A DNA stretch of 64,000 bases from a virus. Positions within the stretch are counted from its first letter, which is position 1, and each line of letters opens with the position of its first letter. The stretch lies in IMG/VR virus record IMGVR_UViG_3300031963_012969; one strand, 5' to 3'. The notes under the pieces were generated by a model. The model was given only the letters and a program-made list of their open reading frames with translations, searched no databases and had not been told where the DNA came from. Of the stretch, positions 384 to 59,231 are shown piece by piece. The position numbers were made by a program, and so were the translations under genes.

Positions 384-384
384 A

Positions 385-2127: not shown

Positions 2128-2131
2128 TAAA

Positions 2132-2437: not shown

Positions 2438-2441
2438 ATTT

Positions 2442-3164: not shown

Positions 3165-3222
3165 ACATATATTATTACTAAAATATTGAATTAGTGCAAT
3201 GATATTGGAGTTAAAATACTGC

Positions 3223-12502
<9,280 letters not shown>

Positions 12503-37988: not shown

Positions 37989-38015
37989 AATTTTATTTCT
38001 TTCTTTATTATATTT

Positions 38016-38462: not shown

Positions 38463-38485
38463 GGTTTTTCTTTAGTTTTACTAAA

Positions 38486-41242: not shown

Positions 41243-41264
41243 AATTTTATTTTTATATTATTTA

Positions 41265-41945: not shown

Positions 41946-41947
41946 TT

Positions 41948-42721: not shown

Positions 42722-42722
42722 T

Positions 42723-43183: not shown

Positions 43184-43672
43184 TTATTTTCCTTGGTAAT
43201 ATTTCAATAATTCACCAATTTGTTGTATGTTCATTTGTGGAACACCTATCGACAACGCTGCAGCTTGTGCATTTTGTTTACTTTTCTGTAAGGTGTTTTC
43301 AACTTTGTCTTTGAATGACAATATAGGAATATTTTTATCTACATTAGCGTTCGCAACCTGCCTTGCAGCATCTAGTCCCGTTTGGAACAAAGAAGGGGCC
43401 GCCGCAGCACCTAGTCCGCCAACAACACCACCAGTTGCACCACCAAGCGCCATGCCCTTCAGAATTTGTTTAACTCTACTTTTTTTGTTTCCTTCTTTGT
43501 CGTATCCTGGGTCACCTGCTTGACTTATGCCACCGATAAGTGCACCGAAACCAGCTCCACCTGCTGCTGCAGCTGGAAGTCCTTTTACCACTGATTCGAT
43601 TTGATTGAATGGTTTATATTCATTGACGGCTTTCGACAATGAATCCATATACGTATTTGCGTATTTATTCAT
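43184..43672 (-). CDS. Putative internal head (cargo) protein with MNKY leader and glycine zippers
   Basis: MNKYANTYMDSL; AAAAGGAGFGALIGGI and GMALGGATGGVVGGLGA. Confidence 0.7.
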   Translation of the reverse strand: MNKYANTYMDSLSKAVNEYKPFNQIESVVKGLPAAAAGGAGFGALIGGISQAGDPGYDKEGNKKSRVKQILKGMALGGATGGVVGGLGAAAAPSLFQTGLDAARQVANANVDKNIPILSFKDKVENTLQKSKQNAQAAALSIGVPQMNIQQIGELLKYYQGK

Positions 43673-43683
43673 AAATTATTGTA

Positions 43684-44055
43684 TTATTCTCTATATAGAG
43701 GAGGTAAAAGTAAGCCACCGAGAGCACCAAGGCTGGCCCCACCTGCTATTCCTAGTGGGATAGAAACTGCCTGCACTCTTGCTTTTGGCATTCTCATTTC
43801 GTTAGCAAACGAAATACCACTTAATAAATTACCTCCATCTGAATTAGCTAGAGCAAAATCTCTTATTACACCAGAGCCCATTCCTCCAGCAAGTCCACCA
43901 GCACCAGCCCCAATTGCAGCCCCAGTAACCGTGTCCCTTAGCATTCGTTTGATTTTTTGAATAGTTGTTAATTTTTTTGTTTTATTTTCGGTAGAGGGTA
44001 GATCTTTTAGTTCTTCCCCGACTTTCTGTATATAAATGTTTGTATATTTATTCAT
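43684..44055 (-). CDS. Putative internal head (cargo) protein with MNKY leader and glycine zippers
   Basis: MNKYTNIYIQKV; GAAIGAGAGGLAGGMG and LGIAGGASLGALGGLL. Confidence 0.7.
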   Translation of the reverse strand: MNKYTNIYIQKVGEELKDLPSTENKTKKLTTIQKIKRMLRDTVTGAAIGAGAGGLAGGMGSGVIRDFALANSDGGNLLSGISFANEMRMPKARVQAVSIPLGIAGGASLGALGGLLLPPLYRE

Positions 44056-44068
44056 AAGTTATTTTATA

Positions 44069-44608
44069 TTATCCAAACCGCTTTTTAAAAGCAGCTAAAT
44101 TATTTACTGTTTCTGATCTATTGAATCCATGGGATTTTGAGTAATCCCATTGACCATCTGAACCAGCCATAGCTGAGTCCATACTATTTAAAAAGTTTTT
44201 AGACAATTCAGAATTTCTTTCCATGTTCTTTATTCCATACCCTCCAAGAGAGTTCCCCAGACTTGATTTATATGCATCAACCCTGCTTCCACCTGGAGTT
44301 ATTTTATCCAACAATGCTTGAAAAATAGTGTTCTTGCCTAATCTACCAAACATTTTTAGATTTGGATTTGAAGCTAATATAGATGGAATATTTTTACTGG
44401 CAATGCGCCCTCTAGCCTTCATTGACTCATAAGCGTAGTCAGAAACATTAGGTCTTTTCATTAATCCAAATTCTTGCAGCTTAGCATAAAGTGGAGATAT
44501 TTGTCCATGATTTGCTGGATTCCCGGCAGACACAAAAGACCTTGAGTGATCTAAATTTAACCCAGATTGGATTAATTCATTTAAGTAATTTTGTGAGTAC
44601 TTATTCAT
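44069..44608 (-). CDS. MNKY-leader protein paralogous to the tape-measure N-terminal domain
   Basis: KRPNVSDY, TPGGS, WDYSKSHGFNRSET match tape-measure KRPSVSDY, TPGGS, WDYSKSRGFSRAET. Confidence 0.8.
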   Translation of the reverse strand: MNKYSQNYLNELIQSGLNLDHSRSFVSAGNPANHGQISPLYAKLQEFGLMKRPNVSDYAYESMKARGRIASKNIPSILASNPNLKMFGRLGKNTIFQALLDKITPGGSRVDAYKSSLGNSLGGYGIKNMERNSELSKNFLNSMDSAMAGSDGQWDYSKSHGFNRSETVNNLAAFKKRFG

Positions 44609-45027
44609 TAAATAGAACTTATTATATGCTTGTACTCAATATTGTAAAAGTCAAAAATTTTTAAAGCTTCTTCGCTTCTTTGGTATACCTCTTTGTATAT
44701 AACTTTTTTTATTCCATGTGATGCTATATTCAATGCACATGCTGGGCACGGCATCAAGGTCGAGGCCAATAAGAAACCTTCTCCATTGTTTACGAGTGAC
44801 AATGCATTTGTCTCTGCATGTATTACCAATGGCAGTCGTTTTTCTCTGTCTTCCCAAAAATCATCTGGAGCTACCTTTCCTGGGGCTAAACCATTATAGC
44901 CAGTTGAAATAACTCTATTATTTTTATCAAGAATGCACACACCAACCCTTTTCCATGGATCCTCGCTTCTTGTTCTGGCGACCTCAGCTATTTGCAGTGC
45001 GTACTCTTCCCAATTAATTCTTTTCAT
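44608..45027 (-). CDS. dCMP deaminase
   Basis: RSEDP, TGYNG, HAE and PCPAC zinc-deaminase motifs; true start MKRINW at 45027 (the ORF-track extension lies inside a tRNA). Confidence 0.92.
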   Translation of the reverse strand: MKRINWEEYALQIAEVARTRSEDPWKRVGVCILDKNNRVISTGYNGLAPGKVAPDDFWEDREKRLPLVIHAETNALSLVNNGEGFLLASTLMPCPACALNIASHGIKKVIYKEVYQRSEEALKIFDFYNIEYKHIISSI

Positions 45028-45047
45028 TTTTGTTGTGTTGTGTGTTT

Positions 45048-45122
45048 TGGCATCTCCAAGGGGATTTGAACCCCTACTCTTTCCGTGAAAGGGAAAGGTG
45101 CTAACCATTACACTATAGAGAC
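45048..45122 (-). tRNA. trnE: tRNA-Glu (anticodon TTC)
   Basis: GTCTCTA/TGGAGAT acceptor stem, TTTCC-CTTTCAC-GGAAA anticodon arm, GGTTCAAATCC T-arm, encoded CCA. Confidence 0.92.
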
Positions 45123-45127
45123 AAAAT

Positions 45128-45202
45128 TGGAGCCGACAGTCGGATTCGAACCGACGACCAGCGGTTTACAAAACCGCTGCTCTACCTCTGAGCTATGTCG
45201 GC
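45128..45202 (-). tRNA. trnT: tRNA-Thr (anticodon TGT)
   Basis: GCCGACA/TGTCGGC acceptor stem, GCGGT-TTTGTAA-ACCGC arm, GGTTCGAATCC, encoded CCA. Confidence 0.95.
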
Positions 45203-45205
45203 AAG

Positions 45206-45281
45206 TGGTAGCGGGAGTGGGAATCGAACCCACCTAAAGAGGCTTATGAGACCCCCCAATTCGCCAGAATTGTATCCCGCA
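45206..45281 (-). tRNA. tRNA with CAT anticodon (Met, initiator-like 1:72 mismatch)
   Basis: TGCGGGA/TCCCGCT acceptor stem with U1:U72, loop CTCATAA, GGTTCGATTCC, encoded CCA. Confidence 0.85.
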
Positions 45282-45292
45282 ATGTAAAAACC

Positions 45293-45320
45293 AAAATAAT
45301 CGTTTTTATGACATTGTCAA
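45293..45320 (-). promoter_or_regulatory. Sigma-70-type promoter for the tRNA/dCMP deaminase island
   Basis: TTGACA-N16-TATTTT just downstream of the capsid terminator and 11 nt upstream of the first tRNA. Confidence 0.5.
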
Positions 45321-45323
45321 AGC

Positions 45324-45352
45324 AAAAAAAGAGGCGGCATTTCTGCCGCCTC
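45324..45352 (-). terminator. Intrinsic terminator after the major capsid gene
   Basis: GAGGCGGCA-GAAA-TGCCGCCTC followed by T7 on the minus strand. Confidence 0.9.
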
Positions 45353-45379
45353 AGTTTTTATTTACCAGGAGGGAAACTC

Positions 45380-46372
45380 TTAGAAGAATTTCGCTTTAGC
45401 CACACCAAATGGGTTACCGATAGAGGCACCAATCGAGGAGTAGATAAAGAACTCAACCATGAACGCACGACGATCAACAAACATAGTTGGTTGTTCGAGT
45501 TCGTAGAACTTGCCAAGGAATTGTGGCGCGGAGAAGTAATAAACTTCACCATCCTTAACGATGTCGTCCTTCATTGTGAAGAGGTGCTTATGGCCGAGAA
45601 GTGTAGTGGCCGAAAGACCGCCTTTGAACAACTCAGTCGAAAGATCACCGATATTGACGTGTTGGAACTTGAGGTACTCGCGTCCAGTATTAACATTCAT
45701 GACGATGAGGTCAGTGTTAAGACGGATAGGAGTTTGCTCAGCGCCGAGAACGCCACCACCAGGAGTAAAGCCTTTCGAGAGGATCTTTGTAGCCTCAACA
45801 AGAGATTCACGTGTCCAACCAGTGCTCACACCGAGTGGATTTCTGGAGGTATTCGTGAAGTCATAGTATTGAACCTTACCAGTAACAGGGCTGGCTGCGT
45901 TTCCAGTTGTTCCAACAATAGAATCAATTGTTTGGAAGAATGGAACGTCTTCAGCTGTCATGTGATCCTTAATCGCGTTTTCTTTGAACACGTTACGAAT
46001 ATCATAATCGTATTGCTCAAGTCTACGAACGTCTTGGAAGTAGCTTGGGCTAAGAATGCGAGCAAAGTCAACACGATATCTGTCGCCCTTCATGATACGA
46101 TTTTTAGGAAGTGTAGCAAAACCAACGCTCATCGAGAGTGGTTGCGAAACTTCTTTGTCAACGATCTTGACTGGCTCATCTGTATCGAGCTGCTTATCGA
46201 GCTCAGCGGCAGTGATTGTTTGAGGTGGGAGGATTTTACGAAGAAGACCCTCTTCACGGAGAGTTAAGCGTGTGAAGTCAGTTGCGACTTCAGCAGCCTT
46301 ATTGAGATCGTTCGAGGCGATCTTCTCCATGAATTTATCATTAATAAGTTTAGCTGGGATATTAGTATTCAT
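45380..46372 (-). CDS. Major capsid protein (HK97 fold, encapsulin-like size)
   Basis: 330 aa; LREEGLLRKILP start and terminal IGNPFGVAK; follows protease, scaffold and decoration genes; GGAGG RBS; terminator after it. Confidence 0.8.
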   Translation of the reverse strand: MNTNIPAKLINDKFMEKIASNDLNKAAEVATDFTRLTLREEGLLRKILPPQTITAAELDKQLDTDEPVKIVDKEVSQPLSMSVGFATLPKNRIMKGDRYRVDFARILSPSYFQDVRRLEQYDYDIRNVFKENAIKDHMTAEDVPFFQTIDSIVGTTGNAASPVTGKVQYYDFTNTSRNPLGVSTGWTRESLVEATKILSKGFTPGGGVLGAEQTPIRLNTDLIVMNVNTGREYLKFQHVNIGDLSTELFKGGLSATTLLGHKHLFTMKDDIVKDGEVYYFSAPQFLGKFYELEQPTMFVDRRAFMVEFFIYSSIGASIGNPFGVAKAKFF

Positions 46373-46389
46373 TTTAAATTATCCTCCAA

Positions 46390-46866
46390 TTATTTGGTTC
46401 TGTTTTCTCTTGGAACAAACGTAAGATACGTTTTTGTACCCAAGGAGTATGGTGCACGTGTAACAGTACCAATAACAACTTCAGTGCTGGCAGCAGCGCA
46501 AAGTTGACCATTTTTGGCGGTAAGCTCTGTTCCAACATTGAATGTGTCAGAGGTCTTATAATTGGTTGTTTCGATTTCGAGGGCATTGTTAAACCCAATT
46601 CCATGAATAGCGCCATATGGTAATTGACGGTAGCTGGATGGGCTGTGAGATCCACGATTTGTGGATGGGTCTGCGCTATCAACCATTATGATAAATGGAA
46701 GAGCGCTGATTGTTGTCGTAGCTGGTTTAGACCATTTGCCTGTTGAATCCACAACAGCGACATCACCCTGAGAGAGGGTAACACCTGTAGCGGCTGCAAG
46801 GCTTTTCTCTACGACGGAAGGATTTGGCCAACCCTTCACGATATTTACATTAACTTCGAGAGACAT
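46390..46866 (-). CDS. Capsid decoration/cement protein
   Basis: 158 aa beta-rich Ala/Thr protein immediately upstream of the major capsid gene. Confidence 0.6.
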   Translation of the reverse strand: MSLEVNVNIVKGWPNPSVVEKSLAAATGVTLSQGDVAVVDSTGKWSKPATTTISALPFIIMVDSADPSTNRGSHSPSSYRQLPYGAIHGIGFNNALEIETTNYKTSDTFNVGTELTAKNGQLCAAASTEVVIGTVTRAPYSLGTKTYLTFVPRENRTK

Positions 46867-46881
46867 TTTTTGTTTCCTTTT

Positions 46882-46951
46882 TTTAAGTTTTGCTCCTACT
46901 TCATGTTACTCATGTAACATCGTCTCGTGAGCCTGACGAGATCAACTTAAA
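46882..46951 (-). promoter_or_regulatory. Structured 5' leader (three-stem junction) upstream of the decoration/capsid genes
   Basis: Outer stem TTTAAGTT/AACTTAAA enclosing hairpins TCTCGT/ACGAGA and ATGTTAC/GTAACAT. Confidence 0.45.
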
Positions 46952-47012
46952 CTCTTGAATAAATTGATTTTTAATATTTTGTTATATTAATTAAAAATAA
47001 TCAATACTTTTA

Positions 47013-47405
47013 TTATCCTTCCATCACTAATTTCTCAAATGGATCTAATTCCGAAAGAGACTGCAAGTTGCTTGGTTGCCCAAAGCTTTCGGCTTTAAGC
47101 TCAGAAGCAACTTTGTCTAACACGTTAAAGATTTCAGTTGGGTTATCAGCAATTGAAGAAACAAATGCTACTTTATTCGACTCCTCTAATATACCTCTTG
47201 TAACTAAAGTGTCGGCTATTTTATTTAATCCAGATCTAAAGCTTTCTTTCTCAGAAGAAGCAATTTTTTCGAGTTGTTCGGCTTTTTTTACTGCACTTTC
47301 ATAAAGCGGCTCGATTTGCTTGAGTTTTTCTTGATCCTTAAATGCTGGGATAGCTTGTTCAGCAAGCTTCGCAGCATTTTCGATTAATTCTTTAAAATTA
47401 TTCAT
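47013..47405 (-). CDS. Small scaffold-like head protein
   Basis: 130 aa helical protein with several K-x-A motifs; AAGGAG RBS. Confidence 0.55.
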   Translation of the reverse strand: MNNFKELIENAAKLAEQAIPAFKDQEKLKQIEPLYESAVKKAEQLEKIASSEKESFRSGLNKIADTLVTRGILEESNKVAFVSSIADNPTEIFNVLDKVASELKAESFGQPSNLQSLSELDPFEKLVMEG

Positions 47406-47426
47406 ATTTATTTAACTCCTTTTTAA

Positions 47427-49085
47427 TTAAGCAGCCTGTGGTGGAACTGGAGCTTGGGCCTCAGGTTCAGCTGGGGCGGATTGAGCTTCTTCGCCTCCAC
47501 CAGATAATCCTAACTCTTGTAACACCTGCATAGCTTCTTCTTCGCTAATTTGTCCAGATTGAAGAAGTGCTTCAAGAGCTTGAAGAATTTGCTGAACTTC
47601 AGGTGGAACATTAGCTATTTTTTGCTCTCTCTCTTGAGCCACCTTGCTCAAAATGGCGTTCTGAATATTTTCCTGTTCCATTGCCGACTTGATCAATTTA
47701 GCGTCTTCAATGGCTGCCTGATTAAGGTAATCAGTGATTTCAGAATCTGTTTTTCCAGCTTCTTTCAATTCAGCAACTTTATCGCAAACCATTTTATCAA
47801 TAGCTTGATTTAATTCATCTTGCTGTTGCGCTGTCTTAAAATATTCTTGTATTTCTTGAGTTGAATAACCAAGTTCAACAAGCGCAGCAAGTTTTCTATT
47901 TGCTTCATCAGCTGCTATATTTTGAGCTGTTTCTCCGTTAATAATTTGAGCGTCATTTTCAGCAGCTTGCTTAACAAGTTCTGTTATTTCTTCATCCGTT
48001 TTACCTTCGGAAACCCACTCAGCAACCTTGCTATTGATATTGGACTCAATCTCTTTGATCTCTTGTTCAGAAAAGATAGAAGCTGTCTTAGGTTCCTCTT
48101 CAGATTCCTCTTGTTCTGTAGCCTCCTCTTGTTCTGGAGCTTCTCCTTCTGGAGACTGACCGCCTTCAGTTGCGGCCTGAAGTTGCATCAAAACTTGTTG
48201 TGCTTGTTCCTCGGAGATTTGACCTTCTTGAACTAATTCCTGTAAGGCTTGCAAAATGAGCTCTATTTCAGATCCTTCTTCTCCAGCTTGTGGAGCAGCC
48301 TCTTCTGGGGCAGCAGCTGCAGCTTCTTCAGCCATTTTGTCTTCAAGTGTCTTAAACAAGAATTTTCCTAATTCATACCCAACAGAAACATTTCTGTAAT
48401 GTGTCGCAATTTTTTCGGCTAATGCGTCTTCATCTATTTCAATTGCACTAGGCTCTTTAACATCTTCACTCGCAACCTTAGATTCATCCTTTTTTCTGAG
48501 GGCTTCCAGGTCTTTAGAGTCAATCTTGTTATTAGAATTTACGTCAATTTTTTTTTGAGCTTCTGTCAATTTTTTTTCAGTAGCCTCTTTATCTTCTTTC
48601 TTGCCTTCTTCCTTTTCTTCTTCCTTGTCTTCTTCAGTAGAATCACCTTCATCTTCGGATGACTCTTCTTTTTTTTCCTCAATTACTTTTTTTAATTGCT
48701 CTGGCATTTCAGCTTGTTTCTCAAGCTCCTCTGTGGCGAGCTTGATATTGCCTAAAAGTTTGTTGACAAGATCAGCGGCAGATCCTTCTTCGGCTATTTT
48801 GCTAGAAGGTGAGCATTCTTTTCTGGAACGCTCTTCTGTAGATGGTTCTTTTGTTCCTGGAGCCTTCTCCGTAGCTTCGACACCCATGGTCAAACCCTTA
48901 TCTGAGTTCGAACCGGTTGCTTTTCCAGATCCTGGTAAAACCTGGTTAACCTCGGAATCGCTAGTGCCTTTAGATACGGACGTTTCATTATTTCCTTGCG
49001 ACTCTTCAGCTGTTTTAGATTCACCTATAAACCTGCGAAAGTCTTCAAGGACTGTATTAAATTTGGGAGCTTTTCTTTTACTCAT
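47427..49085 (-). CDS. Prohead scaffold/core protein
   Basis: 552 aa, very acidic and helical, between protease and capsid genes; at least 16 K-x-A motifs; EF-hand-like DVNSNNKIDSKD. Confidence 0.7.
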   Translation of the reverse strand: MSKRKAPKFNTVLEDFRRFIGESKTAEESQGNNETSVSKGTSDSEVNQVLPGSGKATGSNSDKGLTMGVEATEKAPGTKEPSTEERSRKECSPSSKIAEEGSAADLVNKLLGNIKLATEELEKQAEMPEQLKKVIEEKKEESSEDEGDSTEEDKEEEKEEGKKEDKEATEKKLTEAQKKIDVNSNNKIDSKDLEALRKKDESKVASEDVKEPSAIEIDEDALAEKIATHYRNVSVGYELGKFLFKTLEDKMAEEAAAAAPEEAAPQAGEEGSEIELILQALQELVQEGQISEEQAQQVLMQLQAATEGGQSPEGEAPEQEEATEQEESEEEPKTASIFSEQEIKEIESNINSKVAEWVSEGKTDEEITELVKQAAENDAQIINGETAQNIAADEANRKLAALVELGYSTQEIQEYFKTAQQQDELNQAIDKMVCDKVAELKEAGKTDSEITDYLNQAAIEDAKLIKSAMEQENIQNAILSKVAQEREQKIANVPPEVQQILQALEALLQSGQISEEEAMQVLQELGLSGGGEEAQSAPAEPEAQAPVPPQAA

Positions 49086-49145
49086 AATTTTTATATTTTT
49101 TGATTTTATTTTGTATTTAGTTTTGTGTCCACTCTTTTTTGAAGG

Positions 49146-50474
49146 TTAATTCAACATGAAAGCATTGAATATTACATCATCATTAGCGGATATATCGTTT
49201 AAAGCAGCAACCTTGTAGGCTAGGTATTGTCTTACCATAGCACGAGACTCTGGCTTTATAGAAGTTTTTTTATCATTTAACTCCTCGTTGTAAAGAACTG
49301 CTTTTTTTATTTTTTCGTCCTGAACATCGGGAGACAAGATAAATTTGTTTATTTCGTTTTTTGTGTTTTGGGTAATGGAAGTATTCCCATTACAAGATGA
49401 ATCAAAATCATGAATAGATGCAATTTTTTCTAGATTAGAAGCCTCTTTCAACTCCAATCTTACACACTCACTTATCACATCCTCTGTTTCGTCTATTAAA
49501 TTTTTGAAATCATTAAATCTGGATCCAGAAGCAAGTTTATAAAAAACCCTAAACGGAAGTATAGATGCATTTTTAGATAAACAGCTAAACATATCTTTTG
49601 GGTTCTTTTTCTGTAGCTCCCTTATTGCAGACTCAGATAGATCTGTTTTATCTAAAACATTTTTAGGGGCATTAATGCCGACTGCATCAATATATTTTTG
49701 TATCTTAGATAGCTTTTCGGCTATAGCTAACTTCGGGGTAGATAGAATTCTGTTTTCTATTAATTCCGCTAATTCAGCCCCGCCCATTGGCTCACTTGTG
49801 TCAATACCAGCAATTTTAGCTAAATCCATAGCGATCATGTCTGCTCCGCGATCAACAAATGATATATCATTCCAATACCCATCTCTATTATATACAAAAC
49901 ATTTTCTTCCATCTGGCAATATCTTGTTTCTTCCAAATGGGTGAGGTGCCGCTTTTTTAACGTGAACACAGTATTCAGATGGCGCTTTACTTACATTTCC
50001 GCATATAGAACAAACATCATTATCACAATGCCACCCCATAGAAAACTTAACGTCTCCACCTCTTTCAACTCTACCAAGCCAATCAGCACACTTATCTATA
50101 TTAGCTGCAATAGCTAATTCTACTCTTCCCATTTTTTCGTTATAAGCAGATTTAATTACGTCTCCATCTCTCTGCTCATGTGGGACTTTACTATTATGAT
50201 GCCTGTATAATTTAGCTTTCTTCACGAAAGTTGGATGAGATTTTTTACAAACCTCCTCCTCAAAAGCATCAAAGTTTAAATTACTTCCAGTCTTCTCAAA
50301 TGACCCTAAAGCAATTAGATGAATTATAGCGTGATTTTTAATTGGCTCTATGTCTCCCCAGCTATGTCTAACAGACGAAGCTATCTTATCTCTCCTTTGT
50401 GGATCGTCAATTATTTGAACCAGATATTCTGCATCTGGATATTCGAATGAGTCGTTGAAAATTAATTTTCTCAT
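49146..50474 (-). CDS. Prohead maturation protease with Zn-finger insertion
   Basis: LYRHHN (His), FSMG (Ser), CSICG...CVH, DISFV...AD; position upstream of scaffold and capsid genes. Confidence 0.75.
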   Translation of the reverse strand: MRKLIFNDSFEYPDAEYLVQIIDDPQRRDKIASSVRHSWGDIEPIKNHAIIHLIALGSFEKTGSNLNFDAFEEEVCKKSHPTFVKKAKLYRHHNSKVPHEQRDGDVIKSAYNEKMGRVELAIAANIDKCADWLGRVERGGDVKFSMGWHCDNDVCSICGNVSKAPSEYCVHVKKAAPHPFGRNKILPDGRKCFVYNRDGYWNDISFVDRGADMIAMDLAKIAGIDTSEPMGGAELAELIENRILSTPKLAIAEKLSKIQKYIDAVGINAPKNVLDKTDLSESAIRELQKKNPKDMFSCLSKNASILPFRVFYKLASGSRFNDFKNLIDETEDVISECVRLELKEASNLEKIASIHDFDSSCNGNTSITQNTKNEINKFILSPDVQDEKIKKAVLYNEELNDKKTSIKPESRAMVRQYLAYKVAALNDISANDDVIFNAFMLN

Positions 50475-51422
50475 TTATTGAAATGCTGGTTGGTCAAAAA
50501 ATTTATCCCCTAAATACAATTCATTTAAAGCCGGTAGTGCAGCGGCTCCAGCGATAGGAAGCAAACCCTTTCTTGATAGTGCACTCCGCAAAATCGAAAG
50601 AGTTGTTTTACTCAATGGACGTAAAATACTTGACTTTAGTCCACCCTTAAGTGCTTCACTAGCTGTAATTTTAACTCCACTAGCACGAGCCATTTCTTTG
50701 TACATTTTTTCCTTAATCGCTTTTGTATCTATTGAATTTATTAATTTATCTATTTTTTCTCCGCCAAAATACGGGTGAGCGCCAACGGCTTTAATAAATT
50801 CATCTCCCCCATCTTTCCTGACGTTTTCCGGTAGTGCCGCCAAATTGTTTTTTGTTAAATAATTGTTTAAAAATCCACCGCCTGCAGCTCCACCAGTTGC
50901 TAATATTGTAGTGGGATTTATTATATCCTTTGCTTTATCTTTTAGAGTTTTTTTTTGCTCGCCTCCCCCAGACACAAGGTTTTGTGTTACGCCGCCCAAG
51001 GTATTTAATATAGATGGAACAGATGCTCCAATAGCACCACCAGCAACCAATCCGCTAAGTGTTGAATTTCTTTTTCTTCTATTGAAATCTTCGTCTGTTT
51101 CGAATTCCCCCTTTGATGAAGAAAGATTTCCAAATAAACCACCCAATGCTGCTCCACCTAATCCACTCGCTATATTTGCACCACCTGGAGTGTCTTTGAT
51201 TTTATCTTTAGCGGAATTTAATCCACTCAATAAAATATTCTTTATTGAGTCTAGTTTGCCGGTTTGGGGGGATCCAGCCGAATTGTCGGCTCTTTTTTGT
51301 CTTAAGCAGGTTAAAGCAAATTCACCCATTTCGGAGTCAAATTTTTGCATAGCTAATCCAATTTCATCACTGGCTAGTTTTTCATGCACTTTTGTCAAAA
51401 CGTTTTCTAAGGTCATATACAT
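50475..51422 (-). CDS. Putative internal head protein with glycine zippers
   Basis: Leader ending EKLA; GLGGAALGGLFG, GLVAGGAIGA, TGGAAGGG. Confidence 0.6.
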   Translation of the reverse strand: MYMTLENVLTKVHEKLASDEIGLAMQKFDSEMGEFALTCLRQKRADNSAGSPQTGKLDSIKNILLSGLNSAKDKIKDTPGGANIASGLGGAALGGLFGNLSSSKGEFETDEDFNRRKRNSTLSGLVAGGAIGASVPSILNTLGGVTQNLVSGGGEQKKTLKDKAKDIINPTTILATGGAAGGGFLNNYLTKNNLAALPENVRKDGGDEFIKAVGAHPYFGGEKIDKLINSIDTKAIKEKMYKEMARASGVKITASEALKGGLKSSILRPLSKTTLSILRSALSRKGLLPIAGAAALPALNELYLGDKFFDQPAFQ

Positions 51423-51438
51423 TTTGTAAAATTGTTAA

Positions 51439-51819
51439 TTAAATATTGGTTATAGATTCACTTGTATATGAATCTTGTTGAGATCTAAGCACAGACATTG
51501 CATTTTGTATTCTTGTAGTTATTGTCTCAGCTAAATAATTAGCTCTGGTCTGAGCATCAGAAAATGACCTTTTATCAAAAAAACACACAAAAGGCAAAAA
51601 CCCTCTTTTCACTTTTACAAATCTGTTTGGTAAAATCCAGTCAGCAGTTGGGCTAGGTGGCTGACCCTGTACAGTTTCCTCTCCATAAAGACCTCCAACA
51701 TTTATCTCGGGTTCACCAAATTTTTGAATTAGTTTATTGTCCTCCTCAGAAAAATCTTCATTTCTGATTTCTATAAAAAACTTTTGATCGGAAATATATT
51801 TTAATATTCTAGTCTTCAT
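51439..51819 (-). CDS. Hypothetical virion protein
   Basis: 126-aa ORF overlapping the upstream gene by 4 nt. Confidence 0.65.
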   Translation of the reverse strand: MKTRILKYISDQKFFIEIRNEDFSEEDNKLIQKFGEPEINVGGLYGEETVQGQPPSPTADWILPNRFVKVKRGFLPFVCFFDKRSFSDAQTRANYLAETITTRIQNAMSVLRSQQDSYTSESITNI

Positions 51820-53306
51820 TTTTGTGGAGTTTGACCTTGCCCAAGTTGTTTAGTTTTTAATAAATTGTTCTCTAATTCTACAAGTGAATTGGCAAAATGT
51901 GGATCAATTACTTGAGCTGTACCTTGTCTTAAGACAGACCTGGCTATATCCTTAATCATACTGGCATTAGGGGCTAACTGGATAAGTGCGTTGTAAGAGT
52001 TTTCTATTTCTGATGGATCTTGCTGAGATATAATATCGTCATTCATTAACTCCCTCAAGATAGCTTCTCTTTTTATGTTTTCTATCTCTTGTTTGTCTAT
52101 TTGGTATTTTTTAGGATTATCTATTCCCCTTAATTTTAAGGAGTACCCATTTGCCGCTGTATCAGCCATAGCAGAATCTGAGGACATTAGTTGAGATTTA
52201 AAGTTGTTAGACATTTGATCTAACACCATTTTGCCTGGACTAAATATTTGTGGATATTCTGTGGGTTTTTTCTTTGTTTCCTTTTTGTCGCTACTATGTT
52301 TAGTGCTATTATTAACTAAATCTGAAGCGCTTTTGTTTAACTTAACTTCATTTTTTTTTAAATCACCAAATATAATTTGGTCAAAGTCAGAAATCAAATC
52401 TTCTGGGAATTCGGCAAATTTTTGAGTTGCTGCAATATTCCCTCTGCCTGGACTCCACAAGTAATTAGATGCTGATGCCTCTTTATTTATCCCGCTTGCA
52501 TCGCAAATTAAGTTTCTCAATTCGGCTTCTTTTGCAGAACAATCTCTGACAAGACTATTAAATCCAGTCACACTGTTAGTGTACATGGACTCAGAATCAA
52601 CCAACCCAGAGAAACACCTTAAAAATTTATTGTCATCGTAATTTACATCACCGGATAAATTCTCAGATAAATCATCTATAGTTATTTTTGCAACCTTAGC
52701 TATCAAACCAAGTATTCTCCCAGCGGGTTTATTGTCTTGATACTCGTAAAAAATTTGAGCAGCATAATCGGCTACCTTCTCTCTCTCTTCGGTAAACTCA
52801 AGTATTTCTGAAGCTTCTTTCATGCCCTTGTAGAATGCCTCTCTGCTGTCTATGATTAAATCCCTCTTTTCACTTAAATCCCTGTTTTGTTCATTAATAG
52901 CAAAGAACGCTGTTTTGATTCTGGATTCTAGTGGGATGGACGAGGTGCTTGCAATATCAAACTCTTCTTCTGAAGCGGTCTTAGACACTTCTTCAGTAGC
53001 AAGAAAATCATTCAAGTCCTCTTTCATTTCTGAAACAACAGAATTAGGAGCAATTTGAGTTTCGTTGAAGACGCTATTTATTACTGTTTTTTTGTCTGCT
53101 ATGTCAAAGTCTGCTGACTTGTCTTTAGCTATTTTTACATAAGCTTTTGTCTTCGCAGTATTGAAAGCTTCAATTACCCTGCTAATAGTCTCTGGGTTAA
53201 GTTCATGCTCTCTAGCTACTTTTATAATACTATCATTAGCATTTATACCAGAATTATGGAGTTTAATAGCAGAGTTAAGTGCTTTTTCAATACGCTCGTA
53301 AATCAT
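51816..53306 (-). CDS. Hypothetical head-associated protein (K-x-A rich)
   Basis: 496 aa helical; KVA, KIA, KSA, KTA, KEA, KFA motifs. Confidence 0.6.
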   Translation of the reverse strand: MIYERIEKALNSAIKLHNSGINANDSIIKVAREHELNPETISRVIEAFNTAKTKAYVKIAKDKSADFDIADKKTVINSVFNETQIAPNSVVSEMKEDLNDFLATEEVSKTASEEEFDIASTSSIPLESRIKTAFFAINEQNRDLSEKRDLIIDSREAFYKGMKEASEILEFTEEREKVADYAAQIFYEYQDNKPAGRILGLIAKVAKITIDDLSENLSGDVNYDDNKFLRCFSGLVDSESMYTNSVTGFNSLVRDCSAKEAELRNLICDASGINKEASASNYLWSPGRGNIAATQKFAEFPEDLISDFDQIIFGDLKKNEVKLNKSASDLVNNSTKHSSDKKETKKKPTEYPQIFSPGKMVLDQMSNNFKSQLMSSDSAMADTAANGYSLKLRGIDNPKKYQIDKQEIENIKREAILRELMNDDIISQQDPSEIENSYNALIQLAPNASMIKDIARSVLRQGTAQVIDPHFANSLVELENNLLKTKQLGQGQTPQK

Positions 53307-53330
53307 AAGTGTTTATTATATTAAGATAAA

Positions 53331-54227
53331 TTATAATGGTTGTGGAGAAAAATATGTCAATTCTTTAATTTCTTTTTTGTCTACTCCTCTTGATTCTCTT
53401 TCTTTATCTCCAATTATTTTTCTAACTGGGTCATCGTAGCTAAGCGTCGATGACACCTCTGTTATGCTTTCCCAAAGTGCTTTTCTGAATAAATCTGAAT
53501 TTAAATTTTCGTCTCCTTGTTTTGTCTGCTCGGATAGACTTAATGCATTCGTATAGGATATGTGTCTATCGAAGTCACTTGGTCTAGCGTGATTTATTAA
53601 TCTGACTCCAAGTATATATTCACTTGCCTGAAGCTCCAAGCAATTCTTCATTGAACTTACGAGCTTAGATGCAATGCTATCATTTACGTTTATTCTTCTC
53701 TGTAAAATATATTTAGCTGTTTCCCATCCAAACGCATATGAAATACCCATCCAAATTGAGCTTGCTACTACATCCTGTGGAGTTTCTTTCCATCTGTCGT
53801 ACGGAGATATAATAGAATAAACAAAATTTTCGCTATCAAGGTACCTTGATACATCAAAAAATAATTTAAGGTAACAATCAATATTTTCTTCTTTTGTTTT
53901 AAACTCTGAAGATATTTCTTTAACTGTTTTTTTTCCAAGTAACATTGACTGTATTTGAGTTCCAAAACCCCTTGTGTGGTTACTTACAAAGCAGGAGTGA
54001 GCATATTTAACCTGTGGTAATCTACATGCCCCGTGAACTAGATACGAAAAATAGTCTATTACGTATTGGTCATCCTCATCTTCTGGGATAACAACAAAAT
54101 TTTCTTCTCCTCTAGTTAACAATTCTCTGTGAACTCTTCTATACTCAAAAGCTTGATTAGCCCTCCATGATGGAGAGTAATCTGGGTCATCACTAAAATC
54201 TCTTGAAAATCTTTTAATGTTACTCAT
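53331..54227 (-). CDS. Hypothetical protein, possible HTH
   Basis: 298 aa; KTVKEISSEFKTKEENIDCY resembles a helix-turn-helix. Confidence 0.6.
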   Translation of the reverse strand: MSNIKRFSRDFSDDPDYSPSWRANQAFEYRRVHRELLTRGEENFVVIPEDEDDQYVIDYFSYLVHGACRLPQVKYAHSCFVSNHTRGFGTQIQSMLLGKKTVKEISSEFKTKEENIDCYLKLFFDVSRYLDSENFVYSIISPYDRWKETPQDVVASSIWMGISYAFGWETAKYILQRRINVNDSIASKLVSSMKNCLELQASEYILGVRLINHARPSDFDRHISYTNALSLSEQTKQGDENLNSDLFRKALWESITEVSSTLSYDDPVRKIIGDKERESRGVDKKEIKELTYFSPQPL

Positions 54228-55276
54228 GAATTTGTCCAGTCGCCAAGAACCCTCTGAGGAATATTTGTATTGTCTTTGAGGTGTTGGAAGACCCTTAGTT
54301 TATCCTTAGACGATAGTCCAGATATTTCATTTACTAGGTCTTTTCCAATTATGTCACCAAAAAGGCTACTATCCATCATTGAATTCATTTGGCCACTTGG
54401 GCTATGTGAGTACATTAACGAGCCTGCTCCAGATAATCCCAGGCCAGCTGTTATATTGGGCGCTGAGTTGCCCACCATTTTTATCGCATTTCCACCCAGT
54501 CTAAGTAAGTTCGATGGGTTTAAAGAATTTTTACCAGGTTGAGGCTTGGTATATTTAAAAATGTTTTTGTTTCCAGTCAGAGTATTTAAAACTGGAGTTC
54601 TCTTAAGAAGGGTTATTGGCGCTCTCAAAAACTTTGAGGAAACGGCTCCAGCTCTATTAATTTTATTCGCGGCGTTAGTTAATTTTAAGGCTTTTGCCCC
54701 AGCTCCAGTGAATTTACTTAATAGCCGAATTCCCTTACCTGCAGTCCCCAGTGCGGGAATAAAAGACGAACCAGCTAGTAAAGCATTACCAACACCAGAA
54801 AGAAGCTTTCCCCCAGCTCCAGCAGAGTCTCCAGAATAAACTAAGTTTGCTGATGACGACAAATCTTTTACAGCGTCCACGGGTGGATCTAATACTATCT
54901 CTTTTGTTAATTGACCTAAAAACCCAGGAGTACTTTGACCTCCTGCAATTGATTGATCGTTTCCACTCTTCTTATAACTTTTTGACTCAACCATTTTTCC
55001 GAATCTAGATCCAACAGCCGTTCCAATAGAAGAAGAGATTAACGCCTTAATTAATATTTTTTGAACCTGCTTTTTGGAAGTAGGTAATATGCCCTTAGAC
55101 ATGAGCATACCTATTGGTGCCGTTATGCCGCCAGTACTGCCGTAAGCACCAAGTACATCTGCGCCCTGCCTCACAGACATTCCGCTTGGAGGCTCCATTC
55201 CACCATATATTGATCCACCAAATACTGGAATGAAAGACGCCGCGCTGGCTAAAAAATCTGATTTTTTATTTATCAA
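54224..55276 (-). CDS. Putative internal/ejected membrane-associated protein
   Basis: 350 aa Gly/Ala/Lys-rich with hydrophobic segments (ASFIPVFGG, SSFIPALG, AGLGLSGAG); TTG start. Confidence 0.6.
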   Translation of the reverse strand: MINKKSDFLASAASFIPVFGGSIYGGMEPPSGMSVRQGADVLGAYGSTGGITAPIGMLMSKGILPTSKKQVQKILIKALISSSIGTAVGSRFGKMVESKSYKKSGNDQSIAGGQSTPGFLGQLTKEIVLDPPVDAVKDLSSSANLVYSGDSAGAGGKLLSGVGNALLAGSSFIPALGTAGKGIRLLSKFTGAGAKALKLTNAANKINRAGAVSSKFLRAPITLLKRTPVLNTLTGNKNIFKYTKPQPGKNSLNPSNLLRLGGNAIKMVGNSAPNITAGLGLSGAGSLMYSHSPSGQMNSMMDSSLFGDIIGKDLVNEISGLSSKDKLRVFQHLKDNTNIPQRVLGDWTNS

Positions 55277-55281
55277 TTTTG

Positions 55282-56121
55282 TTACCTTGTTCTTTTATTT
55301 CTGTTTAAGAAATTTTGATAATCTTGAATGTATCTTTTGTCGGCGTATATTTGATTTGGAGTTACATTTGAATTCTCTTTGTATATTTGTCTAACTATGT
55401 CAGCCCTTCTTCTATCTGCAACAGATTTAGAATTGTAGCTTCCCATGACTTTAGACAAAAAGGCATCAGTTGGACCAGTAGATGTATTTACTCCAGCAGC
55501 AGATTGTTGATCTTTCCTGACTGGCTGCGCTCTTCTTACTTCAACCATTCCGTTTGTGGTATTCATTTTTGGGGACGTACCCACTGCTTTAGGTAAAAAG
55601 CCAGGTGCATCGTTTATAGCGGAATTTATATTTGCCTCGTTCTGAGTATTATATTGCTGTGTAGCATTTTCAACTAAAGAAGACCCTGAATTTCCTCCAA
55701 AAAATGAAACAGCGCCAGATGGAAGATTCTTATTTAAGCTACCCTTCATTGGAGACGCATCTGCAACCGGTAAATTATTTTTGAGGTAATTTCTTCTTTT
55801 TTCTAATCTTTTATTTTCGAGTCCCATTATAGCGCCTCTTGCAGCATCAGTGGGGCTTTCTTTACCGTACAGGTTGTACGCAAAATCTCTTGCTTTTCCA
55901 AGCATAGTATCCGTTCCAGTAAGTTGATCATAGAGTCCAACTCCACCAGCTCCAGTAACAGCTGCGCCGCCAATTCCAGCCATTAGCTTAGGGTTAGAGG
56001 AAATAGCCCCTCTTGCAGCGCTTATGGCCGGAGAAATAAATGGTTTAGCAGCACTAAATATAGATGCTGTTTTGGCTTCTTTAGTTAATGTATTTTTATA
56101 TGTTTCGGTATATTTATTCAT
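55282..56121 (-). CDS. Putative internal head (cargo) protein with MNKY leader
   Basis: MNKYTETYKNTLTKEAKTA; GIGGAAVTGAGGVG. Confidence 0.7.
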   Translation of the reverse strand: MNKYTETYKNTLTKEAKTASIFSAAKPFISPAISAARGAISSNPKLMAGIGGAAVTGAGGVGLYDQLTGTDTMLGKARDFAYNLYGKESPTDAARGAIMGLENKRLEKRRNYLKNNLPVADASPMKGSLNKNLPSGAVSFFGGNSGSSLVENATQQYNTQNEANINSAINDAPGFLPKAVGTSPKMNTTNGMVEVRRAQPVRKDQQSAAGVNTSTGPTDAFLSKVMGSYNSKSVADRRRADIVRQIYKENSNVTPNQIYADKRYIQDYQNFLNRNKRTR

Positions 56122-56123
56122 AG

Positions 56124-56462
56124 CTAATTTAATGATGCAGTGGTTAAACCACTTAATTCTTGTAATCTATCTCTTAGCAATCTTGCATAATCAGACTGAA
56201 GGGATCTAGTAAAAACTGTATCTTTTTTAACGCCGTCTTCTAGTATCATGTCCTTTAGACTATTTGCGGTTCCGGTAATCTTATCTATTGGCTTAGTCAG
56301 GTCAATCATTTTTCCATGTGTTCTAGAGAAAATAGATTTAGGAGTATTTTTTACGGCATTATATGCGGTTCCAATAAGTTTAAGTGCCATATCACCTCTA
56401 CCAGCCGTTTTATTAAGCTCTATGTCAAGCCTACTCAAATATGTATGTGTATCTTTGTTCAT
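56124..56462 (-). CDS. Putative internal head protein with MNK(Y/D) leader
   Basis: MNKDTHTYLSRLDIELNKTA. Confidence 0.65.
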   Translation of the reverse strand: MNKDTHTYLSRLDIELNKTAGRGDMALKLIGTAYNAVKNTPKSIFSRTHGKMIDLTKPIDKITGTANSLKDMILEDGVKKDTVFTRSLQSDYARLLRDRLQELSGLTTASLN

Positions 56463-57022
56463 CTATATTTAATGCTTCTTATGTTTATGTCACTCCATAA
56501 ATTATTTTGAGTTTCGTCTTGATTTTGTGGCTGATCTCCAAATGCCGAATCAATACCTGTATCAATAGCGTTATTGATAGCCAATCCAGGTGTTGCAACA
56601 CCAAATACGGTTCCAATATCTTTAGCAGATATATTCTTGATTCCTCCCCTTTCCTTCGCTATTGCAGTGGCTGTGTTCCATGGCTGAGTAAATGTATTAC
56701 TCATTATCGACATTGCCTTATTTTTAATTGGCTGATTTGATTCTAATATGCCCCTATACCCTCTTGCCATTGATCCAATGCCTCCTGTAATTCCGCTACT
56801 TAGATTGCCAACGCTTTTTATTGTTTTTTGCGTTAATGGCTTTGCTGCACTAACGCCTTTTTGAATTGCGCTAGAAACTATTGGCTTGGCTGTATTTAAT
56901 AAATTTTTTACACCAGCGGAAACAATTGGTTTTGCTGCAGAAAATGCGGCCCTGGCGGCTGGCACCACAAATGCATTTTTTTGATTTAATTCATTAAAAT
57001 AGATTTTTGAGTATTTATTCAT
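56459..57022 (-). CDS. Putative internal head protein with MNKY leader
   Basis: Start re-called to 57022 (MNKYSKIYFNELNQKNA), 1 nt after the upstream stop; three AKP(I/L) repeats. Confidence 0.7.
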   Translation of the reverse strand: MNKYSKIYFNELNQKNAFVVPAARAAFSAAKPIVSAGVKNLLNTAKPIVSSAIQKGVSAAKPLTQKTIKSVGNLSSGITGGIGSMARGYRGILESNQPIKNKAMSIMSNTFTQPWNTATAIAKERGGIKNISAKDIGTVFGVATPGLAINNAIDTGIDSAFGDQPQNQDETQNNLWSDINIRSIKYR

Positions 57023-57023
57023 A

Positions 57024-59231
57024 TTACTGAAGTACGTCTGTACCACTGGATGAGCTCTCTACAGCTCTTTGCTTAAGGAATAAAACAACTTTAGCTGTTG
57101 ATTTTATTGTGGATAAAATTAAATCCTCAAAATCCGCCATTTCATCGATACCATATTCTTCTGCGAAGTCCGAATTGTGCCAATAAAATAAAAGAAGCAA
57201 TCTGCACATTCTATCTAAGTTATCTACTAGTTCGGGGATATATTCCTGAACTATAGACTGAGACCTAGATGTTCTAACGATCACCCCTATCATTGCTGGG
57301 TCAAAAACCTGTCTAGAATTGCTATCGCTTGCTCTTTCCAAGAATTTCAAATCTTCATCAGTAATTTGATTCCATAAACCAATGTCCATGTCTGTTGCTG
57401 GCCTTGGTCCAGGGCTTGACTCAGTCATTTGAGTTCTCAATTGTTGCTGTGTTTGAACTGGAGTGCCATCCCTATTTACCCCAGCTGCACCGTCTGGGGT
57501 TTCAAAAGACGGGAACGCTAGTTTTTTATTTGTTCTTGGTAAGTACCACCCAGAAACTCTAGCCTTCTTTTTGTCAAATATCTCTGATGCCACTTTTTCT
57601 GAGTCTTGTTGAGAGAACCCAGCTCTATTCATTAAATCAACAACCACTTCGCTTTTGTCTCTATAGGACAAAGAAGAACCGTCAACAAATACGTTAATGT
57701 CGAATGCAGCAGATTTTTCTACCAAAATCTCTCCAGCTCCCCTACCAATTAACAAAGATTGAAGAGTTTTGTCATCACCTGGCTTGACGTCATTTATTTT
57801 GCTTGAGTCAAATTCTGGAGTCTTAACCTCAATAACCTTGCAACACTTAGGTACAAACACTACATTGCCTTTGGTGAACTCAGGCAATCCATGATCTTTA
57901 TCTATTGATCTAAGGTACCCCTTATCCCCCCAGCAATGACCGCAACATCCAGACGACAAACAAGAAGAATTTCCACCATCGGTTAAGAAATTACTATTGC
58001 TGAATGGCACATAGTCTTGTTCGACAAGTACAGTTGTCCTTTTATTTTCTGTTATTTTGTTTGTAACATTAAATGGACCATAAACACTTAATTCATGATC
58101 TACCAAGAAATACTTTTTGCCAACAACACATGAATTAAGATCTTTTCCTGTATTTTTAAGAATTTCATCTTTCTCTTCTTTTGTTAGTTCCTGTGTGGTA
58201 CCTGAATTAGACTTGTAGTAAACAGGCTGCTTTGCCCACTCCATATTTCCATTACTTGGGTCAATAACAACCTGTGGAGAATAAGATTTGCCCATTGAAT
58301 GCATGGACTGGTCATTTGATCCAGTATTGATCGCCCTTGCAGAAACAAAAACCATCGCCTTAATAATGTCGCCGTTATGGTTTAGAATATCATATAGACC
58401 AGTTTCGGTAACTTGACCAAATTCTTTTCTATAATCCCCTAAGTATAAATCGCTTTTATCCTTTTCGTCCCTGTTGTCGTCAATTCTATATCCATTTTTA
58501 ATTATTTCAGTTTTTTCTTCTGTGGAAAGATTTGACAGCTTTAGCAGAGCGTCACCAGACTTAATCAACGTTATTGGGTCTTTTGTGTCTTCTTGCTTTG
58601 CCTCTTTTTTAGACTCAAAAGTTATCTTAAGGTCATCCAGTTCATAAAACTTAGATATATATGAAAATATTTCTGGAGTCTCAAGAGCGTATTTTATGAA
58701 ATTATCATAATTCTCTTTTCCAGACTTTTGAAGAAAATCGATTAAATCACTATCAGTTTCAGATAGTGCCATTTTTGTATCAATAAAGTCATCAACAGTT
58801 ATGTCATAAAAATTCTCCAAAGATGCAGCTTTGCTGTTTGCACTAGCTGGTGGTCTTGAAAATATTCTTAATGTGTTACTCGTTTCCCCATCTATTACAG
58901 GACTTTGTTTGGCTGGTTCACCAATGTCTTCTGGGTTTTGACCGGATAGATAGTTAACCCATTGTTCGTTGTTTGCTACAAATGTATCAGAATTTTTTAG
59001 ATACATAACCTCCATTCCCTTTACCTTTCCATTAAGGAAAAATACTGGAATGTAGATTAGTTGTCCGCCTAACTTGAAGCCCATTATACCAGCGGCTCTT
59101 GTGCCATCATCATTTTTGTCTATGATGTCAAAACCCAAGTAGTGGTTCAATAAGTTGGGGTTTTTTTCTGATATTTTAGCTACTGCTATTTCGGATAAAT
59201 TTTGTTCAACCTGTTGTAATGGAGTCGGCAT
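57024..59231 (-). CDS. Large head-module protein of unknown function (735 aa)
   Basis: First gene of the morphogenesis block; several K-x-A motifs; CLSSGCCGHC cluster. Confidence 0.6.
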   Translation of the reverse strand: MPTPLQQVEQNLSEIAVAKISEKNPNLLNHYLGFDIIDKNDDGTRAAGIMGFKLGGQLIYIPVFFLNGKVKGMEVMYLKNSDTFVANNEQWVNYLSGQNPEDIGEPAKQSPVIDGETSNTLRIFSRPPASANSKAASLENFYDITVDDFIDTKMALSETDSDLIDFLQKSGKENYDNFIKYALETPEIFSYISKFYELDDLKITFESKKEAKQEDTKDPITLIKSGDALLKLSNLSTEEKTEIIKNGYRIDDNRDEKDKSDLYLGDYRKEFGQVTETGLYDILNHNGDIIKAMVFVSARAINTGSNDQSMHSMGKSYSPQVVIDPSNGNMEWAKQPVYYKSNSGTTQELTKEEKDEILKNTGKDLNSCVVGKKYFLVDHELSVYGPFNVTNKITENKRTTVLVEQDYVPFSNSNFLTDGGNSSCLSSGCCGHCWGDKGYLRSIDKDHGLPEFTKGNVVFVPKCCKVIEVKTPEFDSSKINDVKPGDDKTLQSLLIGRGAGEILVEKSAAFDINVFVDGSSLSYRDKSEVVVDLMNRAGFSQQDSEKVASEIFDKKKARVSGWYLPRTNKKLAFPSFETPDGAAGVNRDGTPVQTQQQLRTQMTESSPGPRPATDMDIGLWNQITDEDLKFLERASDSNSRQVFDPAMIGVIVRTSRSQSIVQEYIPELVDNLDRMCRLLLLFYWHNSDFAEEYGIDEMADFEDLILSTIKSTAKVVLFLKQRAVESSSSGTDVLQ

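Follow-up and report, generated by a model that had tools for sequence, protein, structure and literature searches.

We analyzed a 64,000-nucleotide window (the whole stretch of DNA examined) of IMG/VR record IMGVR_UViG_3300031963_012969, from an uncultured large freshwater myovirus. Every gene in the window lies on the minus strand. Six of them encode proteins that begin with a common short peptide, here called the leader, of 12 to 17 residues with the consensus MNKY-[AST]-x-x-Y-[FLI]-x-x-[LVI]-x(1-2)-K-x-A. A preliminary description of the window had pointed out the six shared starts, at positions 43672, 44055, 44608, 56121, 56462, and 57022; all were present as claimed, with Tyr8 invariant and Leu or Val at position 12 in each. 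The genes do form two clusters of three that flank the head-assembly genes, as that description stated. One cluster (positions 55282 to 57022) directly follows a 735-amino-acid (aa) gene in the portal position, and the other (43184 to 44608) comes after the capsid gene, three tRNA genes, and a dCMP deaminase gene.

In the first cluster, p187 (187 aa; 56459 to 57022) begins with MNKYSKIYFNELNQKNAF and has a 98% identical ortholog in one related phage contig, G001. Its ATG lies one base past the stop codon of the upstream 735-aa gene, and an alternative GTG opening is found at 57046. The next protein, p112 (112 aa; 56124 to 56462), carries the leader MNKDTHTYLSRLDIELNKTAG. In p279 (279 aa; 55282 to 56121), the leader MNKYTETYKNTLTKEAKTAS is immediately followed by the heptapeptide KTASIFS (residues 17 to 23), which recurs at residues 333 to 339 of the protein in the scaffold position.

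The second cluster opens with p179 (179 aa; 44069 to 44608), in which the leader MNKYSQNYLNEL precedes a copy of the N-terminal domain of the 2232-aa protein in the tape measure position (27324 to 34022). Residues 47 to 179 of p179 are 46% identical to residues 81 to 216 of that protein (E value of 3e-41); the tape measure-position protein has no leader, and the p179 homolog in relative G003 does. Next, p123 (123 aa; 43684 to 44055) couples the leader MNKYTNIYIQKV to a Gly-rich body, and its homolog in relatives G001 and G002 (37% identity) bears the variant MSKYSSLYLNKIA. Against the Pfam Gly-zipper_Omp and YMGG families, p123 scored 14.7 to 15.7 bits, below the cutoffs of 25 to 29, a compositional resemblance. 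The last protein, p162 (162 aa; 43184 to 43672), has the leader MNKYANTYMDSL and a body that combines a double glycine zipper with a conserved loop, DPGYDxxGNKKSR; orthologs down to 30 to 38% identity retain M1, N2, K3, Y4, and Y8. The public gene call for p162 (P0121, 154 aa) begins at Met9, so the leader is absent from it, an example of how automatic annotation can hide such N-terminal tags.

Beyond the leader, the six sequences are largely unrelated, as had been noted: BLASTP found no pair with an E value of ≤0.01. This result is qualified by the sequence FSAAKP[FI][IV]S, which p279 and p187 both contain despite it, and by glycine-zipper-like Gly/Ala-rich stretches in four of the six proteins. 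Searches of PHROGs and Pfam returned nothing above threshold for the six proteins and two of their neighbors, nor for nine leader proteins from relatives. No Shine-Dalgarno-like sequence lies 5′ of the leader genes (43672 to 57022, minus strand), and their starts are tightly coupled to the preceding stop codon (TAA-T-ATG, ATGA overlap, and TAG-CT-ATG).

Within the window, the leader is confined to six N-termini and conserved as a peptide

In a six-frame scan of the window, the strict motif MNK[YD]xxxYxxx[LV] matched six times, each time at the start of one of the six minus-strand open reading frames (ORFs) named above, and MNKY occurred nowhere else. With a position matrix built from 26 nonredundant leaders (from the window and its relatives, described below), the six window leaders scored 24 to 34 bits, compared to 15 bits for the best of 19,884 internal positions and −3.8 for the next-best window N-terminus. 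This seventh-ranked N-terminus belongs to p315, a Gly-rich head-module protein (50475 to 51422), which has V8, L9, V12, K15, L16, and A17 in register with the leader and lacks MNKY and Tyr8.

The leader is conserved as a peptide and not as a DNA signal. Across 25 leader genes, the invariant residues Asn2, Lys3, Tyr4, and Tyr8 are encoded by both synonymous codons, and relatives that use the alternative codons keep the peptide (for example, ATGAACAAGTACGCC). No conservation was found in the DNA upstream of the six starts. These results set the motif apart from an A-rich translation-initiation sequence, an explanation raised in the preliminary description. All six genes are located in the head module.

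The leader shows amphipathic-helix periodicity: Met1, Tyr4, Ala5, Tyr8, Leu9, and Leu12 fall on one face. The mean hydrophobic moment was 0.38 for leaders, compared to 0.28 for other N-termini (P value of 3e-4). An AlphaFold2 model of p162 placed a helix at residues 3 to 17 with low confidence (predicted local distance difference test [pLDDT] score of 49, too poor to place the leader on the body). Sec and Tat signals were considered and rejected: residues 1 to 17 are polar or amphipathic, with Asn, Lys, Asp, and Glu throughout, and since they have neither a hydrophobic core nor a twin arginine, the leader is not a signal of either kind.

Related phages carry the leader on different bodies

Seven viral contigs related to the window (four with a capsid protein 78 to 95% identical to that of the window and three further fragments) contained about 20 further leader proteins, always on the coding strand. 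At the DNA level, the leader pattern gave 28 matches in these relatives, all on the coding strand, compared to 2 for a reversed-pattern control, which supports the specificity of the motif. The window and its relatives together encode 26 nonredundant leader proteins of 49 to 459 aa with differing bodies. When viral contigs were scanned with the DNA pattern, most of the matches listed were chance singletons, and the real ones came from the known clade and the three new fragments. Because it is too short, a leader profile gave only four true matches with an E value of ≤1e-3 among 1.84 billion proteins; one top profile match was discarded as a spurious repeat protein.

Leader and body vary independently of each other in several families. 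In the p162 family, the leader is nearly invariant while the identity of the body drops to 30 to 38%, an insertion of 0 to 28 residues falls exactly at the leader/body junction, and the G003 homolog has an acidic N-terminus and no leader. The Gly/Ala-rich protein p350 (54224 to 55276) is leaderless in the window, and its counterpart in relative G004 has a degenerate leader, MDRLTRVYIEGIKKIA. In G001, the p279 and p350 bodies are fused; because the resulting 495-aa ORF consists of p279 residues 1 to 211 and p350 residues 57 to 350, the p350 body there sits behind a leader. As judged by sequence comparison, the proposal that the leader is a portable N-terminal tag on diverse proteins is well supported: eight related phage sequences together encode about 26 distinct proteins that bear it, a linker of 0 to 28 residues lies between it and the body, homologous bodies occur with and without it, and in one protein it is joined to a copy of the tape measure N-terminal domain.

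Most leader genes of the relatives sit in one of three slots of the head module: following the portal-position gene, preceding the decoration gene, or following the capsid gene. In some relatives, a remote locus also holds leader genes, and one remote 429-aa protein is homologous in its C-terminal part to a 459-aa leader protein from the head module of another relative. In G004, a 118-aa MNKY-leader gene lies directly 5′ of a 1670-aa RNA polymerase piece (locus L146, positions 4795 to 9807, plus strand), a beta/beta-prime fusion with weak matches to Intein_splicing and LAGLIDADG. The polymerase piece itself begins with MDLFEQMFPGLLKEAGAF (hydrophobic-x-K-x-A), about 118 residues ahead of the first polymerase domain.

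The surrounding head module includes a candidate gp21-like protease

In reading order, the head and neck block of the window begins with an RNA polymerase piece (60997 to 62853), followed by the 735-aa portal-position gene (57024 to 59231; identity assigned by position) and the first leader cluster. The genes for p350, p298, p496, p126, and p315 (50475 to 55276) separate this cluster from that of a 442-aa protease (49146 to 50474). Then come an acidic 552-aa scaffold-position protein (47427 to 49085); p130, a small helical head-module protein (47013 to 47405) with the N-terminus MNNFKELIENAAKLAE; a 158-aa decoration-position protein (46390 to 46866), between p130 and the capsid gene; and the 330-aa major capsid protein (45380 to 46372). 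Three tRNA genes (Glu, Thr, and Met; 45048 to 45281) separate the capsid gene from that of dCMP deaminase (44608 to 45027), which precedes the second leader cluster. The longest deaminase ORF reaches 45108 and overlaps tRNA-Glu, so the protein probably starts at the Met at 45027. Downstream of the second cluster lie the neck proteins, sheath, and two tube paralogs (37461 to 43178). The capsid protein shows 30% identity to its counterpart, the major capsid protein, in Salmonella phage Arash as well as to proteins listed as hypothetical in Vibrio phages D69, D181, and D148, and the head-neck-sheath block is syntenic with that of Arash.

The protease consists of an N-terminal T4 gp21-like domain and a helical C-terminal half. 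An AlphaFold2 model computed from a 20-sequence alignment had a pLDDT score of 81, and the top three Foldseek PDB matches of its N-terminal domain were chains of 5jbl (T4 gp21), with a probability of 1.0, template modeling (TM) scores of 0.50 to 0.62 on the target, and E values of 9e-3 to 2e-2. The best structural match of the modeled prohead protease is thus the T4 gp21 fold. H52, H93, and S145 are invariant. PHROG matches were weak; more than 130 metagenomic homologs were found, and 505 viral contigs encode a relative.

From its position and composition, we infer that the acidic 552-aa protein is the scaffold. The portal-position protein, alone or as a profile, had no PHROG, Pfam, or PDB match, and no Atlas match was found. 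Its gene occupies the slot of Arash gp218, a virion protein, and the flanking genes for the RNA polymerase piece and protease match those of Arash; the two proteins showed no direct match with an E value of ≤0.01.

A Lys-x-Ala signature marks leaders and head proteins

Most leaders end in Lys-x-Ala (KxA), which falls within positions 11 to 21 in 18 of the 26; in some it follows immediately (YLDKLA, YLTKLA), and in others it comes after a further helical turn (YFNELNQKNA, YLNELSQKTA). In the window, it follows the three leaders for which it was first described (TKEAKTA, NKTA, and QKNA). The same tripeptide is enriched in head proteins of the window relative to the counts expected from shuffled sequences: 18 versus 6.1 in the scaffold-position protein, 14 versus 3.4 in the protease, 13 versus 3.9 in the conserved head-module protein p496 (51816 to 53306), 8 versus 2.7 in the portal-position protein, and 6 versus 1.5 in p130. 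Among all 400 spaced residue pairs in seven window head proteins, K.A was the top outlier (63 versus 22.4, z score of 9.0; next best, 4.4). KxA was not enriched in the tail genes (z score of 0.8) or in the bodies of the leader proteins.

The usual context of the motif is hydrophobic-x-K-x-A-[S/E/A], and Ser follows 18 of the 68 KxA sites in the head-module proteins of the window. The capsid protein has KIA at residues 17 to 19 and KAA at residues 25 to 27, the latter in a column conserved throughout the clade. We aligned about 57 distinct capsid proteins of the clade defined by the protease, Arash included, and most had K-x-A at one place, about 10 residues before a conserved [YF]xRxxxRE; here, Arash (gp226) has VKEAGAA. 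Vibrio phage D69 has LTKEAGAA at the corresponding position. KxA enrichment extended to Arash gp220, gp222, gp223, and gp225, to Vibrio phage D69, and to three distant metagenomic relatives.

T4 gp21 and herpesvirus assemblin have a common fold. Assemblin cleaves on the C-terminal side of Ala, at sites such as YLQA-T and VQA-S (PMC4498786), and K-x-Ala followed by Ser, Ala, or Glu is therefore a plausible cleavage site. On these grounds, we infer that KxA is the cleavage motif of the head protease. No description of a phage protease with Lys-x-Ala specificity was found in the literature searched.

Distant lineages carry other leaders

We also looked for shared N-termini at 76 loci encoding protease relatives beyond the close relatives of the window, with random viral loci as a control. 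Five ORFs of one distant lineage start with MKYFEK-x-A-A, as do two more in a related contig. In another lineage, YEQGFLTKCAEYGID stands near the N-terminus of five or six ORFs, and in a third, two ORFs start with MNHLxYLIKxA. The random loci yielded one cluster of shared starts, which lacked KxA. The leaders of these three lineages, too, end in KxA, and across the different leader sequences we read a common core of aromatic-hydrophobic-x(1-5)-K-x-A. The YEQGFLTKCAEYGID ORFs (L180, positions 298 to 6190, plus strand; IMGVR_UViG_3300045988_110837) surround the portal-position gene, and the peptide follows N-terminal extensions of variable length, forming a longer leader-like module.

A capsid-targeting propeptide is the favored interpretation

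The data show that the leader exists, that it is confined to ORF starts, that it is conserved as an amino acid sequence, and that it is modular among relatives; they also show the KxA enrichment and the match of the protease fold. We favor, with modest confidence and by analogy, the interpretation that the leader is a T4-like capsid-targeting propeptide clipped at KxA. Short N-terminal sequences of the T4 internal proteins, Alt, gp24, and others bind the scaffolding core and are then removed by gp21 (PMC3012670, PMC5694885). In Arash virions, most products of the head-module genes are present, as is the RNA polymerase (among 116 proteins listed, from a preparation that may not be clean) (PMC10585845), which argues for heavy protein loading in the Arash group.

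By this interpretation, a large clade of Arash-like myoviruses would use a leader on head proteins, of which the MNKY leader would be the local form. Through its amphipathic helix, the leader would attach its protein to the scaffolding core or the inner shell while the prohead assembles, and the gp21-fold prohead protease would then clip the leader at Lys-x-Ala, probably after Ala, like herpesvirus assemblin. KxA may also flag as substrates the capsid N-arm, the scaffold, and the portal-position protein, as well as the protease itself. After maturation, the bodies, which are mostly small Gly/Ala-rich glycine-zipper proteins plus the copy of the tape measure N-terminal domain, would be retained in the head and serve as internal or ejection proteins; a role of the glycine-zipper-like bodies and the tape measure-domain copy in the DNA entry path is speculation.

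The preliminary description had proposed a signal for loading proteins into the head, and the genomic context fits this idea in part: a gp21-fold protease and a separate acidic scaffold-position protein are present, and KxA is found on most leaders, on head proteins, and on the capsid N-arm. The fit is incomplete for the leaders of the window, since KxA is missing after three of the six (p162, p123, and p179). Other observations also weigh against a clipped targeting signal. Over the whole set, 8 of the 26 leaders have no KxA in their first 21 residues. Many KxA sites of the protease occupy conserved positions of the catalytic domain, which is odd for cleavage sites and means that not every KxA can be a cut site; the tripeptide could be a structural or interaction motif instead. 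The gp21 fold match is modest (E value of 9e-3 and TM score of 0.62 on the target), and the p162 model is poor (pLDDT score of 49). Some relatives have leader genes at a remote locus among nucleotide metabolism genes. The MNKY leader was not found in the head modules of Arash and Vibrio phage D69, the closest cultured relatives. Finally, the bodies have no recognizable enzymatic domains, so delivery cargo and core building blocks are not distinguished.

The leader proteins might instead be components of the scaffolding core or the inner head, comparable to T4 gp67 and gp68, and not cargo. The leader would then be an assembly or oligomerization helix of a fast-diverging protein family that is degraded or expelled at maturation and not delivered to the host, an alternative that we regard as plausible but unlikely. 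It would account for low-complexity, Gly/Ala-rich bodies without enzymatic domains, for leader genes interleaved with those of the protease, scaffold-position protein, and capsid, and for the KTASIFS common to p279 and the scaffold-position protein; T4 core proteins also have processed N-termini (PMC5694885). However, glycine-zipper stretches and a tape measure-domain copy are more like membrane-active ejection parts than scaffold. The scaffold-position protein, which should be cut to pieces, is rich in KxA, but the bodies show no such enrichment, and the remote leader genes of the relatives recall the T4 internal protein genes.

The leader might instead be a pro-sequence or protease site that keeps membrane-active proteins inert until clipping, or it might stay on the protein with KxA as a helix-packing or scaffold-binding motif, head entry being a property of the body in either case. 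The strictly conserved residues 1 to 12 make this improbable: they lie upstream of KxA and are kept on bodies that share nothing else, so a common partner for the leader itself is likely needed. The KxA sites at conserved positions of the protease catalytic domain and the three window leaders without KxA would nonetheless agree with such a function, and the P1 Dar proteins have no consensus tag (PMC9024508).

Recognition of the leader by another machine (a modifying enzyme, a chaperone, or a membrane or secretion route) would suit bodies that look membrane-active, but we consider it quite improbable, as the genes around either cluster include the protease but no recognizable modifying enzyme, and the link of the leader to the head module and KxA is specific. 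In an AT-rich genome in which many genes start with MN or MK, the shared start might be suspected of being a signal in the nucleotides, for instance, a recombination scar or an A-rich region for translation initiation. This is close to refuted by the varied synonymous codons beneath a peptide that relatives keep and by the unlike upstream DNA, and the amphipathic-helix periodicity and the capsid gene without a leader also speak against it.

Extending the propeptide interpretation to the clade, we tentatively propose that Arash-like large myoviruses may use a Lys-x-Ala head maturation code unlike that of any described phage, with cleavage after Ala, and that each lineage may have its own swappable address helix (MNKYxxxYLxxLxxKxA, MKYFEKxA, YEQGFLTKCAE, or MNHLxYLIKxA). 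We hold this extension to be possible rather than probable.

Comparison with known head-targeting signals

The capsid-targeting sequence (CTS) carried by T4's internal proteins IPI, IPII, and IPIII and by Alt is MKTYQEFIAE. Like the CTS, the leader is a short N-terminal peptide on otherwise unrelated proteins in a phage with a gp21-fold protease, and the tripeptide at the end of most leaders recurs in the capsid protein and the scaffold-position protein. In both systems, the bodies are diverse and turn over fast, and some of their genes are found at a distance from those for the head. The leader differs in that its sequence does not resemble the CTS and lacks an [LI]-x-E end, Lys-x-Ala being predicted instead; its consensus, MNKYaxxY[FL]xxLxxKxA, has only Tyr4 and amphipathic character in common with the T4 sequence. 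It is also longer (13 to 17 residues), and the phage is Arash-like, not T4-like. The bodies are Gly/Ala-rich and are not known anti-restriction proteins. Propeptides processed by gp21 are also found on T4 gp23, gp24, gp67, and gp68 (PMC3012670, PMC5694885).

SPN3US and phiKZ similarly have a gp21-related protease, processed internal or ejection proteins, and diverged paralogs with a common N-terminus (PMC5694885), and the wider groups package virion RNA polymerase. For example, SPN3US gp53 and gp54 share the identical 15-residue N-terminus MANFVKSKLARESVE (PMC5694885). In contrast to the leader, most of their propeptides exceed 100 residues and occur on paralogs, and the cleavage code is x-E, with AxE and SxE sites (PMC5694885).

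Herpesvirus assemblin resembles the predicted system in the protease fold that it shares with T4 gp21 and in that Ala would be P1. At P3, its sites carry a hydrophobic residue or Gln in place of Lys (PMC4498786). Its cuts fall at scaffold C-termini, and it is not known to take targeting tags off N-termini. DarB of phage P1 bears a packaging signal at its N-terminus, and a stretch of up to 30 residues is sufficient for capsid entry (PMC9024508); unlike the leader, the signal has no consensus among Dar proteins and no protease-site logic (PMC9024508). The class, a shared N-terminal head-targeting propeptide, is thus known from T4, with hints in SPN3US (gp53 and gp54) and P1 (DarB; PMC9024508). 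New here are the Arash-like lineage, the leader sequence, and the predicted Lys-x-Ala code common to different leaders across the clade.

If the favored interpretation is correct, the T4 logic of an address tag plus a protease site extends to unrelated, barely studied large phages, with a new tag and a predicted new specificity. The head cargo of uncultured phages, possibly including virion RNA polymerase pieces, would become predictable from genome sequence, and a second, orthogonal packaging tag would be available for loading proteins into phage capsids. The interpretation also makes a sharp prediction for Arash and Vibrio phage D69, both cultured relatives, which show the Lys-x-Ala signature in their head proteins.

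Other features of the window

The two tube-position genes (37461 to 37988 and 38016 to 38462, minus strand) are adjacent and 82% identical to each other, and a single ORF of G003 matches both. Farther along, at positions 3223 to 11670 (minus strand), three tandem paralogs of about 930 aa with long collagen triple-helix repeats are probably tail fibers. The paralog tested matched Pfam Collagen with an E value of 5e-121, and the GC content of these genes is 0.53 to 0.54, compared to about 0.35 elsewhere in the window.

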